Source: Mobula birostris (Eukaryota). Taken from it: a stretch of 64,000 bases of DNA. Location of the stretch: NCBI RefSeq assembly GCF_030028105.1, contig NC_092380.1, positions 70,305,717 to 70,369,716 of the forward strand, given 5' to 3'. The position numbers were made by a program. Below are positions 30,001 through 36,000 of this stretch, one piece after another (within the stretch, counting starts at the first letter, position 1; every line of letters starts with the position of its first letter).

Positions 30001-33000
30001 AGATTTTCTCAGTGAGATCGGGCATATTGGTGCTTCACTGCTTTGTTATTAACCATATGGTCCAGCAAAGAACCTTCTAACAAAGGAATTTTAATTGCGC
30101 ACAAATTATTGTTACCCTCTACCTCGTTGGTAAGTGCTGTTGTCACTGGGCAAAAAAATTGCACAGTGCTAGATTTTTTGCACACAATAGTCATTAAAAA
30201 TTAGAGGGAACATTGTGTTCTAGTCCTTTTATTTCTGAAAATCTGTAACATTACCAGCCTCTGTTACTCCCCAGCAATGGGCTACACCCAAGCCCTGCAC
30301 CATTGCACTGGTTAGTTACCTTACTTGATCCAACACTTTCCAGTGCCAGCCATCAGAGGCACAGTCTGCACACTGTCTCCATGGCTCCCTCTGCATCCGA
30401 TCTGTGCACTGAGGCGATCACAGTGCTATCCTCACTGAGATGCCAGTTCTAGGCACTCACTATATGTAACTGTGGCCAAGATACTATGCTCTGTGGGATA
30501 GCAGCAAATGATGTACTGGTGGTCTTATCAGAATAAGGAGAGTCAATCTCATTGAAATGTACAAACCTCTTATCTGTTTGGACAGGGATTAATGTGCAGT
30601 TGATGTTTCAACTGGCTGATATACTGAGAACAAGGAATCAGTGTCTTAACAGTTTTGATATGGGAAAAAAAAAATTCCATCATTCAGAGCTGTGAGGAAG
30701 CTATGAAGCCATCTTCAAGGCAGAAATTGAAACATATTGGAAAATAAAGTCTGTGGGGCCAGTACAGGGATATAACACTGCAATAAAAACACAAAGCCCG
30801 GCATGATCTTACTGAATAGAAAAGCAGCCATCAGAGGCCAAATGGCATAACCTGCTTCTTATGGTACAATGTGACTGCAGACTTGGTTAGAATGGGTATT
30901 CACCTCTTAATCGCAGACAGTAACTGGATGTGACAGGCTTGCTTGAAGTTTCAGAATGAAGGATTTGCATCTTGAACTCTTTCCCATGATCACGAGCAGT
31001 TGGTTTAAATGTCCAACGGGATGATCGTGAGTACAAACCACTGGAATCCTTTGTACTTTCTTCAGTGACTATTCCTGATTGTGATGCATCTTGAAATTTA
31101 CTATCATCTTTGAACCAGAATATCTGATTTCCTTCCGGAAAAAATCCATAAGCCCTGCAGGAAAGTGTTAAAGGCTTTCCTATTTCAGGGCAAGTTGGAT
31201 CTGCCTTAATTTCTGAGATCTTTGGCAATGATACTAGACATAAAAAAGGAAGAAAAATAAGTTAAACTAAATACGCAACTTAAAGAATATTACAATTTAA
31301 ACCAAAACTGACAAGCATTTCTTAGTAAGTAGTTCAAGACTGAAAACTATTAAAAGCAATGAAAAAAAAAACTATTGTCATGTCTTTCCTGATTTGGATT
31401 ATTATTTTATTTCTAATTACTGGATCTCACTGCTTTCTTGTGGGTTCTCAGCTGTTATTGATTGCTCATTATTCTCTTGTTAAGGAATTAGCTTTCATCA
31501 TCAGGGCAGCCATTTTACATTGTTCATATATTTCATGTAGTAGTTAGAAGTAATTAAAAAATAGAATCATTCAGGAGAGTTCTTTAAACTATCCTATATC
31601 CTTTGAATTGTGTGAAATACTGTCAAACACCCTTGATAAGTATAGTCATATGGTGGCTGGTTTTGATCAAATAATTTCAGTTTTTACAATCAATAGCAAT
31701 TAAAAGTTTTATACTTTTTCCTCTTAACTATATCTATATATTAACTTTTATTTATTTACCAACAAATCAATGAATTCACCCATTTTCATTTACTTTCATT
31801 TTCCAAGGAATTCTCTATTCAATCAAATCCACCATGTTCACCTTCCTTTGCAGTAATACAATTAGCCTGTAGGCTTTGTGACACCCTGCTTGCTGTCTTG
31901 GTAAACCGATGCCAAAAAATTACAAGGGTATGTCCTAGTACCAACAGTTATCATTAGACATCCATCCTTTATGAATTTCAAATCGATTGTAGAAAAAAAC
32001 AACTTCAGAAACAAAAAACGTGTTACTTACTCACTTCACCAGCTACCCAGTGAGTCTCTATTGGCCTTGATAAGCTCTCATGTGCTACTTGGCATGTGTA
32101 TTTTGTCTCAGTGTCAGCGCTGCTAAGAACAATCTGCACATCAGCTGTGAAATAATAGAGTTCATCCTGTCCAATCACTGCATCATTAACTTCAGAATTT
32201 TGTTGTATTTCTGAGCCATCTTTGAGCCATTTAACTATGATATCTCTGGGGTAAAATGCACTTATTTGACAGCTTAAATTCATGGGCACTTCTGCAATTG
32301 GTTTTGCTGCTTCACACTTTATAGTGCCCAGTTTTGGAGGAGCTGGAAAAGAAAACAAGGTTTGAAACATGAGCAGATTTTCAAAAGTGGGGGACTAGAT
32401 ATTGCACTTTCCGTATGTAATTACTTATAGCTTTGAAAACTTTGGCGAAAGACATAGAATATAATTACTTAATTTATTAATTTCAGTACAATCCTACCCT
32501 ATTGATTTAGCTTGCTATATACTTAAATTATCTCAAATCTTTTCCCTTATAACATTATTACTAACTTGTAACAATAAGAGAAATATGGCATCAAGACAAT
32601 GCATTCATCAGAGGAGCCTCCAAATGAAATAAGCAATCTGGATCCTTCCTTGTTGCAAGGCTTAGATAATAGTATACCTGTAATTCTTAGGGTTATTTCT
32701 TTCTCTTGCTTGTCGTTAGTGGAGTGGTGCAGTATGCTACATAAGTACTGCGAGTTCAGGTCTTGCTGTATATTTGGCACAATAACTAATACACTAGCAA
32801 TGCTGTAAGTTTTGTCTTCATGCTCCACTTCACTGATGTAATGCTTTGCCTTCAAATTCATCCTGTTGTCATCGTGTTTGTTTGTCGTATTGTCCAGCTG
32901 CAACCGGACAAGTTCTTCCAAATCTTTATTCTTTCTCTTTTGTTGCCATATAATACTTAATGGCCTTGGTTTAAATCCACTGACTGAACAAGACAAAGCC

Positions 33001-36000
33001 ACAGGTTCCTTGTCTTTGATGAGAGGTGGCGTCAAAATGTTTAAAACCTTAGGTGGCACTTAGAAAAGAGGAAATGAAAAATTAATCTCACAAACTGAAA
33101 TGCAAAGAAAGAAAAAAATACTGAATTGTTTTAAATGTTTAATGACTGAGTCCACCTGATGAAGAACGGTATTCAACATAGCTATCAACATCATTGACAT
33201 AAGAGATTCTACTGGTGCTGGAAATCTTGAGCAAAACATGCAAAATGCTGGAGAAGCTCAGCAGGTCAGGCAATATCTACGGAAGGCAAAACAGCTGACG
33301 TTTTGGGCCATAACCCATCAGTACTCTTCACCATAGTTGCTGCCTGACCTGCTGAGTTCCTCCAGAATTTTGTGTATCCACATCAATGTCAAATACCATA
33401 TATGTTAATGAAAGACATTCAAAATGGAGCCACAAAAGACAGCAATTAATAATTAAAGAAAATATTTGCAATTTACCTCCTTTAACGTCTAGTCTCAGTG
33501 TCTTAGTTATAGGCTCTTTAAGTGCTTGATGTTGAACTTCGATACTTAACTCAGCCCCATCATCCTGAGAAATATCTGGATGTATTCTGACACTGACTTC
33601 TACACTGCAAATCTTTCGTGTGTTAGTTTTTAATTCAGAAATCTGTGCTTTAAAGGATGCATCTTCGTCATCTGACTGCATAAGGATTTTCGTTTCATTA
33701 CAGTCAGGTCCATTTGTTGATGTATACTGACTGCAGATTTTTTTCCCATCCTTACTGCTCCAATTCAGAAGCCGACATTTATCGTTCTGCTTCCTCTTTG
33801 CGTAGATCACAATTGTAATCTCATAAGGTCGAAATGAGCTAACCATCCAATTGACTACGCTTTCTTCAAGATGTTTCAAAACTTGATGTTCACTGCATCC
33901 AGTAATTTTTGGAGGAACTAATCAAAACAAAATAAGTAGTTAACGCTTAACAATGTAAATGTTCTTTCTTGCATCCTCAGTTTTTATTGCCTTTCTGGAA
34001 TTACAGAAATAAGACACAACTAGTGTAAACAGACAAGGTCAGAATTTCTATTAGTTTGTACCATTTTTATTCAGCATATTATGGCCCAAAATAACGAAAC
34101 CAACAAAAATTGCATCCAGTGGAATTAAGAGTATTTTAAAAAATTGCACTATTTGCTTATTCCGAAACACTGGAGGGCTATTTATTTATTTATTTTCTTA
34201 CGTCCAAGGGAGTAAAAATCTTCATGTATCTCCATCGCAATGTACAAGCAACGAAGAGGGACAATGTGGGAGGATATTGCCCTAACATTGAAATTGTATA
34301 CATGATTGTTTTGCATACATGCACAGTCAGATACACAATTAGATCAAAGTACAGTCAGATATGCAATCAGATCTAACTTCTGATTTCAGATTTTTGTTAA
34401 TTGCTTCCGTTGGTGAACTTTAAAGCAGGTTCTTAAAAAAATCTAGGTGGTAAGAACCGAGAAAATTCATCACTTAGCACAGTTTATTTCTAAACATGAG
34501 AACATATTTTTTTCTCTACCCCCCCTCCACCCACCAAATTCCTCTGCAGATAAAGCATTTCACAAACAAGAGAAAATCTGCAGATGCTGATAATCCAAGC
34601 AACACACACAAAATCCTGGAAAACTCAGCAGGCCAGGCAGCATCCATGGAGAAAAGTAAACATGTGATGTTGTGGGCTGAGACCCTTCATCAATCCTGAA
34701 GAAGGGTTTTGGGCCCAGACTTTGTCTATTTACTCTTTTCTATAGATGCTGCCTAGCCTGCTGAGTTTCTCCAGCGTTTTCTGTGTGTTGCTTCATGCTC
34801 ATTTCATGTCAAGAGCAAATTCAGCAATTGAAGTGACAGAAAAAAGGATAAGAACCCATGAAATGGGCCACATTTAGTGGTGCTCCACATTGTGCTATTA
34901 AAACAGTGCCCAATGACAGGTGAACCTGGAGGAAATTCAACTAGCTTCCTAGGGAAGAAGCTTATTGGGGAAGTCAATCTACATTATCCAAAAGGAACTT
35001 TGAAAATTGAATGATGTAATTTATGGCATCATAAAAATTAACTGTGCATCAATTCCAAATTCAAATGTGTTTGAAGGGAAATATAATTATAAAAAAAAAT
35101 CAAAATTAAATGGAGGTTGCATCTAGAGTATCAAATTCCATTCAATGGAGAAACACCAAGCAAGACTTTCTGTTGAACACCAATGGAGGAGTACAATTAC
35201 TGCAGATTAGCTGTAATCAAAGCAAAAAGATCATCACTTCCCAATTTGGGGAAGAGATACAAGAAACAGTCAAAGAATCAGAACAGCCATGCAAATTCAC
35301 AGCCAGCAACCCAGGTTCAATGCTAACCTCTGGCACTACCTGTGTGGAGTTTCCACACTGGCCATGATGCAGGAATTTCCTCCAGGTGCTTTGGTTGCCT
35401 TCCGCATCACCAAAAAAATATGCAGGCCAATAGGTGAATGAAATCTGTGAATTTCTCCAAGTGTAGGTGAATGGTAGAACCTGGGGGGAGCTAGTGAGAA
35501 ATTGGGGAAAATAAAATGGGATTTTGTAAACCAGTGTTTGATAGCTGGCATGGACACAGTGAGCCAAATGGCCAGTTTCTTGGCTGCATCTTCTATGACT
35601 CAATGCACAAACTGCAACACACCAAAATGATTTCACTGTCTTCATATTACCTGCTTGAAATCTCCACCAATAAGCAAGTGGTCCTGCAGCAAACAGGAAA
35701 CATAACACAAATCCTCCTATAAATGCAGCTCCCACTGCTGCTGTTGAATCTGATTCAGGCTCTGAAACTTAGAAAACCAAAACAAAAATATGAGCATTTA
35801 GACACATGAATAAACTTCATCATCTTGAGACACTTATGAGTTTTTGCAAGTTATAAATCACCATTCATAAGCCCTGTAACGATTTTCAAGAAATTGAAAG
35901 CAAAATTGTGCAACTTATTTTCACTTTAAGTCATGGTCTGGGAAATTTATTCCGTAGTTTTGTTATTTTTCATATAATCTGGAATAAGTGATGGGCTCAG

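Follow-up and report, generated by a model that had tools for sequence, protein, structure and literature searches.

The 64,000-nucleotide stretch of the Mobula birostris genome analyzed here (RefSeq assembly GCF_030028105.1, contig NC_092380.1, positions 70,305,717 to 70,369,716 of the forward strand; hereafter, the window) carries on its minus strand a gene that is best explained as an old long form of B7H6 (NCR3LG1), in which a V-set and a C1-set immunoglobulin (Ig) domain are followed by one membrane anchor and a presumably cytoplasmic chain of further Ig domains, with a cysteine mosaic that would be ancient and held by selection and a transmembrane (TM) exon that would behave as a cassette. 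We assign this reading a probability of about 0.68. In the protein so envisaged, a signal peptide and the V-C1 ectodomain would lead into a single stop-transfer helix and then directly into an Ig chain derived from the C1-set, which by the rules of membrane topology would lie in the cytoplasm immediately beneath the membrane in the anchored isoform. The cysteine (Cys) mosaic of that chain would predate the divergence of cartilaginous from bony vertebrates, or, in its last domain (D5), the elasmobranch radiation, and would since have been held by purifying selection; skipping of the frame-neutral TM exon would give a soluble all-Ig form. Viewed in the single manta gene, the missing Cys residues resembled an ongoing decay, whereas the orthologues point to a signature frozen before the cartilaginous and bony vertebrates diverged.

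Gene structure and assignment to the B7H6 family

The exons in the window were identical to those of XP_072128567, a RefSeq "uncharacterized protein" from M. birostris, and the gene spans from the leader exon at 55174-55297 to the stop codon at 3179-3181, all on the minus strand. The coding part of the leader exon (start codon, signal peptide, and phase-1 donor G/GTAAGG) was located by tblastn with the M. hypostoma protein P0003, and its donor was checked; the Ig and TM exons are all of phase 1-1 with AG/GT borders. The ectodomain is encoded by a V-set exon at 38208-38549 (Pfam V-set, E 1.4e-07) and a C1-set exon at 36598-36918 (Pfam C1-set, E 1.3e-10, 41.9 bits), each with both canonical Cys residues, the latter with a third Cys in addition. 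The TM exon at 35651-35761 comprises 111 nt, with an acidic N-flank and an Arg and a Lys after the hydrophobic core. Behind the anchor of the manta protein come the four domains D1-D2-D3-D4, which a linker rich in serine and acidic residues joins to D5. In the exon-based analyses, the window exons were searched and folded singly, and whole-protein comparisons were based on database proteins.

D1 (33477-33917) is a divergent C1-like domain with a disordered insert; D2 (32678-33058; Pfam C1-set, E 2.4e-06, 28.2 bits) is a C1-set domain with a long C-D insert; D3 (32040-32342; E 2.1e-14, 54.1 bits) is a canonical C1-set domain, carrying in rays an A-strand Cys; D4 (30904-31233; E 1.2e-07, 32.4 bits) is again of the C1-set; and the terminal C1-like D5 (3182-3483, directly followed by the stop codon at 3179-3181) gave a weak Pfam match and carries Cys residues in the A-strand, the B-strand, and the BC-loop. 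The linker between D4 and D5 is built of acidic, serine-rich 15-residue units encoded by four live 45-bp mini-exons within 9204-21614 (21573-21614, 17135-17176, 12792-12833, and 9204-9245, each with split-codon bases added), which a six-frame comparison matched exactly to P0008, a RefSeq protein, and which have AG/GT flanks.

The ectodomain of B7H6 is composed of a V-set and a C1-set domain, C1 taking the place of the C2 domain of most B7 proteins. When the manta C1 exon was compared with the Protein Data Bank (PDB), chains of human B7-H6 (NCR3LG1; 6yjp, 3pv6, and 4zso) were among the top four matches (E 4e-15 to 8e-15), and the single-pass type I anchor that follows C1 in B7H6 was also present (19-residue window score 2.31, with positive-inside flanks). 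Because of the V-C1 ectodomain matches and the source names of database relatives (nurse shark B7H6, alligator NCR3LG1), the window gene is judged to be a member of the B7H6 (NCR3LG1) family. The PDB entries closest to D3 were shark UrIg2 (9dmx, E 1.5e-19) and SIRP-alpha (2wng, E 8.6e-19).

Past the donor of the TM exon, the frame stays open for 144 codons (35220-35651, minus strand) with no Pfam match, possibly by chance; read-through there would yield a V-C1-TM protein with an unrelated tail, and other chance open reading frames (ORFs) of about 150 residues also occur in the window.

Distribution of the long form

The order leader-V-C1-TM-Ig array was common to sharks, rays, chimaera, reedfish, coelacanth, lungfish, amphibians, and alligator. 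A search with D3 matched ray gene models of like layout only, and the post-TM part of a stingray paralogue retrieved 30 proteins at E ≤ 1e-5 from rays, sawfish, electric ray, skates, eight shark genera, chimaera, lungfish, frogs, and a caecilian, including the nurse shark record QTT61906.1. With the D1 exon alone, 65 representatives were found at E ≤ 0.001 (22 at ≤ 1e-10 and 6 at ≤ 1e-30), whose matches mostly started near residue 260-330, directly after V-C1-TM; the ten of these that were looked up by name came from horn shark, catshark, Xenopus, coelacanth, reedfish, alligator (NCR3LG1), Leptobrachium, newt, lungfish, and Rana.

Domain types were assigned with the nurse shark protein as reference, and V-C1-D1-D2-D3-D4-D6-D7-D5 was the order found in 8 shark genera, Narcine, Rhinoraja, one frog, and one caecilian, and D6 and D7 were missing from the manta and stingray genes. 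The number of domains also varies (P0001, P0017, P0062, P0068, P0060, P0041, P0076): some ray genes multiply D3-D4 or D4, with four D3-D4 pairs in Hypanus and six D4 copies in the neighbour gene of M. hypostoma; skates have two V-C1 units ahead of the anchor; and in the chimaera and one horn shark paralogue the array consists solely of D1, repeated three to seven times. In Hemitrygon akajei, a short paralogue (P0018, 297 residues, named NCR3LG1-like by the National Center for Biotechnology Information, NCBI) stops four residues after the anchor, so that a single ray genome contains both long and short forms. Inspection by eye of two linkers before D5 showed SPYSNL (nurse shark, P0031) and VLYENI (white shark, P0030), tyrosine motifs that presumably fit the pattern of the immunoreceptor tyrosine-based inhibitory motif; none was seen in the manta linker.

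Our survey of the literature, incomplete in its coverage, found no description of a post-TM Ig array of B7H6, and the literature on cytoplasmic or intracellular Ig domains turned up nothing relevant to it. The long form of the B7H6 family appears to be old and largely undescribed, though its sequences are public and one of them is named B7H6.

Cysteine states in the manta gene and across the family

An earlier note on the window, drawn from its sequence alone, had stated that both ectodomain domains keep both Cys residues, that D1 has neither, that D4 and D5 lack the F-strand Cys, and that two post-TM domains keep the pair. The motifs on which it relied were all found on the minus strand (VVNW and LSIEV in D1, FKMQ in D4, IQVQ in D5, and TFSIS in dead exons), and the stated assignments were borne out. 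Exon translations gave both Cys residues in V and C1, the V pair being present in 8/8 ray genes. Profile-profile alignment by hhalign placed the Trp and Ile of D1 on the B and F Cys columns of D2 (probability 99.9%, E 5.6e-32), and placed the Met of D4 (99.8%) and the Val of D5 (98.9%) on the F Cys column of D3; D7, aligned with D3 in the same manner (99.8%), has Val on the B Cys column. The canonical B-F pair that characterizes the C1-set is accordingly present in D2 and D3, the two domains in question, and absent from D1 (W, I), D4 (C, M), and D5 (C, V). Within this single gene, the contrast of 2/2 ectodomain and 2/5 post-TM domains with both Cys residues is too small for significance by itself.

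We next counted Cys residues over unique family sequences, with duplicates and segments of fewer than 60 query residues dropped. Both canonical Cys residues were present in 62/64 V, 72/75 C1, 58/64 D2, and 72/85 D3 sequences, and in none of the 78 D1 sequences. D4 never had the pair (0/48), the B Cys being kept in 47/48 and the F Cys in 0/48, with M, V, L, I, or A in its place; D7 showed the converse state, with both in 0/31, the F Cys in 30/31, and V, I, A, or T at the B position in 31/31. D6 had the B Cys in 35/37 and the pair in 11/37. In D5, whose A-strand Cys occurred in 32/32 sequences, the pair was found in 0/17 elasmobranch taxa and in 4/8 other taxa, namely coelacanth, caecilian, newt, and alligator, in which the A, B, and F Cys residues occur together. 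The pattern seen in the single manta gene is thus reproducible across the family.

Within seven ray genes the Cys states were invariant (D2 in 7/7, D3 in 11/11, D4 with the B Cys only in 11/11, and D5 in 5/5), and in the table by taxon the states of D1, D4, D6, and D7 were alike from sharks to tetrapods, indicating that these losses predate the cartilaginous-bony split. The remaining Cys residues ranked among the best conserved columns of their domains, both where they are paired (D2 B-Cys 1st and F-Cys 8th of 122; D3 Cys 4th and 5th of 101) and where they are orphans (D4 B-Cys 4th of 106; D6 B-Cys 3rd of 104; D7 F-Cys 4th of 103). Between sharks and tetrapods, the retention of these partnerless core residues amounts to 95-98%. 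The missing Cys residues are, on this family-wide comparison, an apparently old and fixed domain-specific trait and not a continuing decay. The claim that the post-TM domains are losing their cysteines under relaxed selection could hence not be upheld: the states of D1, D4, D6, and D7 are shared by cartilaginous and bony vertebrates, that of D5 by 17/17 elasmobranch taxa, and what remains is strongly conserved.

Fold and constraint of the post-TM domains

With the Pfam C1-set profile (PF07654, gathering cutoff 21 bits), the ectodomain C1, D2, D3, and D4 scored above the cutoff and D5 below it (16.2 bits), and D1 gave no match. Against the I-set profile every exon remained below the cutoff (13-19.5 bits vs 23.7 bits), and a Pfam scan of the manta gene detected no B30.2 domain. 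By hhalign, D1-D7 and the ectodomain C1 were related to one another at 98.9-99.9%, including D5 with D4 at 99.4%; the exception was D5 with C1 at 81%. AlphaFold2 models were built for D1 and D5. That of D1 was a confident sandwich (mean predicted local distance difference test score, pLDDT, 83, and at least 90 in 101/146 residues), interrupted by a disordered insert (residues 59-82), and its Foldseek matches were SYG-1, T-cell receptor chains, beta2-microglobulin, and UrIg2; that of D5 was likewise a sandwich (pLDDT 93.9), matching major histocompatibility complex class II alpha2, HLA-DM, and beta2-microglobulin.

The C-strand Trp, the so-called pin, was the most or nearly the most conserved column in every domain class (0.94-1.0). 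Between nurse shark and coelacanth, the identities were 38% (V), 38% (C1), 34% (D1), 39% (D2), 37% (D3), 38% (D4), 43% (D6), 39% (D7), and 27% (D5); over such distances, the conservation of the post-TM domains is similar to that of the ectodomain. The array is thus predicted to be composed of folded, constrained Ig domains derived from the C1-set.

Membrane anchor and predicted topology

Among the 150 proteins fetched, 130 contained C1 followed by D1 or D2, and a hydrophobic segment lay between C1 and the array in 121 of them. The anchor itself was scored in 86 proteins (27 named and 59 representatives), of which 68 show the junction and 65 have linkers long enough. The best 19-residue Kyte-Doolittle mean fell below 1.6 in 0/65; the flanks averaged 1.14 K+R and 2.08 D+E on the N side and 2.57 K+R and 0.52 D+E on the C side, with more K+R on the C side in 54/65 proteins. 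A second hydrophobic segment downstream of D1 (19-residue window of at least 2.0) was found in none of the family proteins, one tandem fusion excepted, and D5 terminates at the stop codon with no anchor after it. Between Mobula and dasyatid rays, the TM segment had the lowest identity of all gene parts (62-67%), with its hydrophobicity retained. Because a signal peptide is combined with just one stop-transfer helix, the rules of topology make a cytoplasmic array the best reading for the anchored isoform, and it is for this isoform that the cytoplasmic topology asserted in the earlier note holds as most likely.

N-glycosylation sequons were counted after close relatives and second domain copies had been dropped. 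The array was not enriched in them (4.53 per protein vs 4.70 for the reversed motif), no array column was conserved in at least 40% of the sequences, and the sole conserved sequon column lay in the ectodomain C1.

The Cys pattern itself had been put forward as independent support for this topology, a role in which it proved to be consistent only. No family protein examined has the post-TM domain types ahead of the anchor, and there is therefore no contrast on which a cysteine argument could be built; moreover, if the TM-skipped isoforms described below are real, the same domains would also enter the endoplasmic reticulum (ER), and the argument would thereby lose its force. According to PMC5766482, the cytosolic I-band Ig domains of titin carry CysB in 43% and CysF in 42% of cases, as pairs, singles, or none. 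Since these domains show a similar B/F mosaic, that of the manta array is compatible with the cytosol without being proof of a cytosolic location; titin differs in being a filament protein of I-set domains, whereas the manta domains are C1-set relatives within a membrane protein.

Alternative explanations

Several observations weigh against an anchored protein with a cytoplasmic array. The D2 and D3 Cys pairs (58/64 and 72/85) are easier to explain with the disulfide formed, i.e., in the ER. Glycosylation could be indicated by an N-x-T that 12/15 named elasmobranch genera keep in the D2 loop, although the motif around it is conserved as a whole. The fractions of charged, polar, and Cys residues were nearly equal before and after the anchor and did not separate array from ectodomain. 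The family models are automated predictions, the nurse shark record perhaps excepted, and the ligand and rod functions proposed below, although the most likely role, are argued from analogy. Finally, 6 of the 130 proteins had no TM segment, and three of these were RefSeq isoforms lacking exactly the TM exon: isoform X6 vs X1 of H. akajei (38 residues; 1/7 isoforms), X2 vs X1 of Rana temporaria (37 residues; 1/2 isoforms), and X3 vs X1 of Heterodontus francisci (31 residues; 1/5 isoforms). The manta TM exon being of 111 nt and phase 1-1, its skipping keeps the frame, and, judging from the isoforms annotated in other species, a soluble all-Ig form can probably be produced as well; such a form may explain why the Cys pairs of D2 and D3 are so firmly kept. 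One could thus suppose that the array acts outside the cell and that the key product, with seven to nine Ig domains, is the form secreted upon skipping of the TM exon, the anchored form being a minor or inert by-product. The exact exon skipping, the symmetric TM exon, the strongly conserved D2 and D3 pairs, and the D2-loop N-x-T all favor this view, which we nevertheless consider unlikely. The hydrophobicity and positive-inside flanks of the TM segment are kept in every lineage examined, and the anchored form itself is therefore under selection. Isoforms without the TM exon were annotated in 0/3 cases for M. birostris, 0/7 for M. hypostoma (two genes), 0/11 for Rhinoraja, and 0/8 named for Leucoraja, and those that exist could equally be splicing noise, to which a short symmetric exon can be subject. 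Nor is the array enriched in sequons, and, to our knowledge, domains without the canonical pair are unusual in a secreted Ig chain, whereas here the pair never occurs in D1, D4, or D7, and is found in only 11/37 D6 sequences and 0/17 elasmobranch taxa for D5.

That the Cys residues are being lost at present, through relaxed selection in a reducing compartment, is quite improbable. A slow decay of orphan residues over deep time is indeed visible at a single place, the B position of D1, where C (33), W (32), Y (5), and F (4) are mixed among 78 sequences, W, Y, and F being single-base neighbours of Cys in the genetic code; the D5 F-strand Cys, present in four bony vertebrates and in no elasmobranch taxon, and the incomplete pairs of D6 point the same way. 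Against it stand the invariance within rays, the near-complete retention of the orphan Cys residues of D4, D6, and D7 as 3rd- or 4th-ranked columns, and the ancestral Cys state of the dead exons described below. It would be harder still to believe that the architecture is an annotation artefact in which gene prediction has fused a short V-C1-TM gene of B7H6 type with a separate multi-Ig gene. The uniform 1-1 phase of the Ig and TM exons would make such a fusion easy, a short V-C1-TM paralogue (P0018) does exist, and nearly all models are automated. Yet the junction of TM and D1 within a few residues recurs in the 121/130 proteins, from cartilaginous fish to alligator, and in the nurse shark record that was submitted as B7H6; and in no model does the array have a leader of its own, nor does D5 lead to an anchor.

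Comparison with known systems and possible role

Human B7-H6 (the NKp30 ligand; 3pv6, 4zso, and 6yjp) resembles the manta protein in its V-set plus C1-set ectodomain and single anchor, and NCBI names both the alligator long form and the short ray paralogue NCR3LG1 or NCR3LG1-like. The two differ across the whole tail: that of human B7-H6 is short, reportedly gag-like, and devoid of Ig domains, whereas five Ig domains follow the manta anchor. The nurse shark "B7H6" (QTT61906.1, P0031, 1092 residues) has the same junction, in the order V-C1-TM-D1-D2-D3-D4-D6-D7-D5, and its D4 motif GKEFKMQILH is identical in manta; unlike the manta gene, it retains D6 and D7. Butyrophilins combine a B7-type V-C ectodomain and one anchor with a cytoplasmic beta-sandwich module, B30.2, and differ from the manta gene in that this module is PRY/SPRY instead of a chain of C1-set-derived Ig domains. 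IGSF1, which is internally cleaved, likewise has Ig domains after an internal hydrophobic stretch, but possesses a second anchor, of which the manta family has none. According to PMC6552037, that anchor lies at the C-terminal end and the mature form has seven extracellular Ig loops. UrIg2 and SIRP-alpha, the best solved matches of D3, have their C1 chain outside the cell and the canonical disulfide in all domains. For UrIg2, PMC12227049 places the multi-C1 chain extracellularly, ahead of the anchor.

By analogy with these systems, the ectodomain would serve as a surface ligand for NKp30-type receptors, and the cytoplasmic Ig rod would tie this ligand to intracellular partners, as B30.2 does in butyrophilins. 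In the molecules of adaptive immunity, the C1-set Ig domain is considered a hallmark of the extracellular part, and B7H6-NKp30 is among the few natural-killer receptor-ligand pairs with a history traceable between sharks and humans. Should a conserved cytoplasmic C1-set chain have been part of the ancestral ligand, it would be an exception to the textbook view of the C1-set as extracellular only, and mammals would have acquired their own tail late, in its place; the family would also be a natural example of Ig domains that may fold in the cytosol as well as in the ER, according to the use of a single cassette exon. A bolder proposal, which we regard as doubtful, is that a rod of five to seven C1-set domains has been the cytoplasmic module of B7H6 since the jawed-vertebrate ancestor, coupling the cell interior to the display of the NKp30 ligand; the orphan Cys residues and, in bony vertebrates, the A-B-F triad of D5 might then act as redox switches, TM skipping might release a soluble decoy, and the module might have been replaced in mammals.

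Dead D7 exons, tandem array, and other elements of the window

D6 is absent from the manta gene, and D7 survives there as dead exons only. By tblastn with the live Pristis D7, six copies were found within 11899-28795 on the minus strand (approximately 28443-28711, 25298-25432, 22562-22800, 20682-20965, 16281-16531, and 11938-12188), each with stops or frameshifts, a non-Cys residue at the B position (TFSIS), and the F Cys kept (IKCEV). The earlier note had described one dead paralogous exon without the B-strand Cys. TFSIS was indeed seen, but in six copies instead of one, and these are orthologous to a D7 that is live in sharks, sawfish, and Narcine, where the B Cys is also missing; because live D7 is without it in 31/31 sequences, TFSIS represents the ancestral state and not a loss.

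A repeat search placed the mini-exons and dead exons in a tandem array at 8981-29220 with a spacing of 4343 bp. Three of its units (approximately 4.3 kb each) are 94-100% identical, with older, diverged units on the flanks; each unit holds one live 45-bp linker mini-exon and one dead D7 exon, and an assembly gap (19208-19350) lies inside the array.

Mobile elements occupy part of the 16.6-kb first intron (43038-49048, plus strand), where the ORFs at 44882-47878 match SCAN (gag-like), zinc-knuckle, reverse transcriptase, RNase H, and integrase domains, with Tc1/mariner-type transposase fragments on either side (43038-43622 and 48758-49048). Long open frames rich in proline, serine, and leucine at 1823-2560 and 10304-10746 on the minus strand are of low complexity and probably represent simple repeats, not genes.

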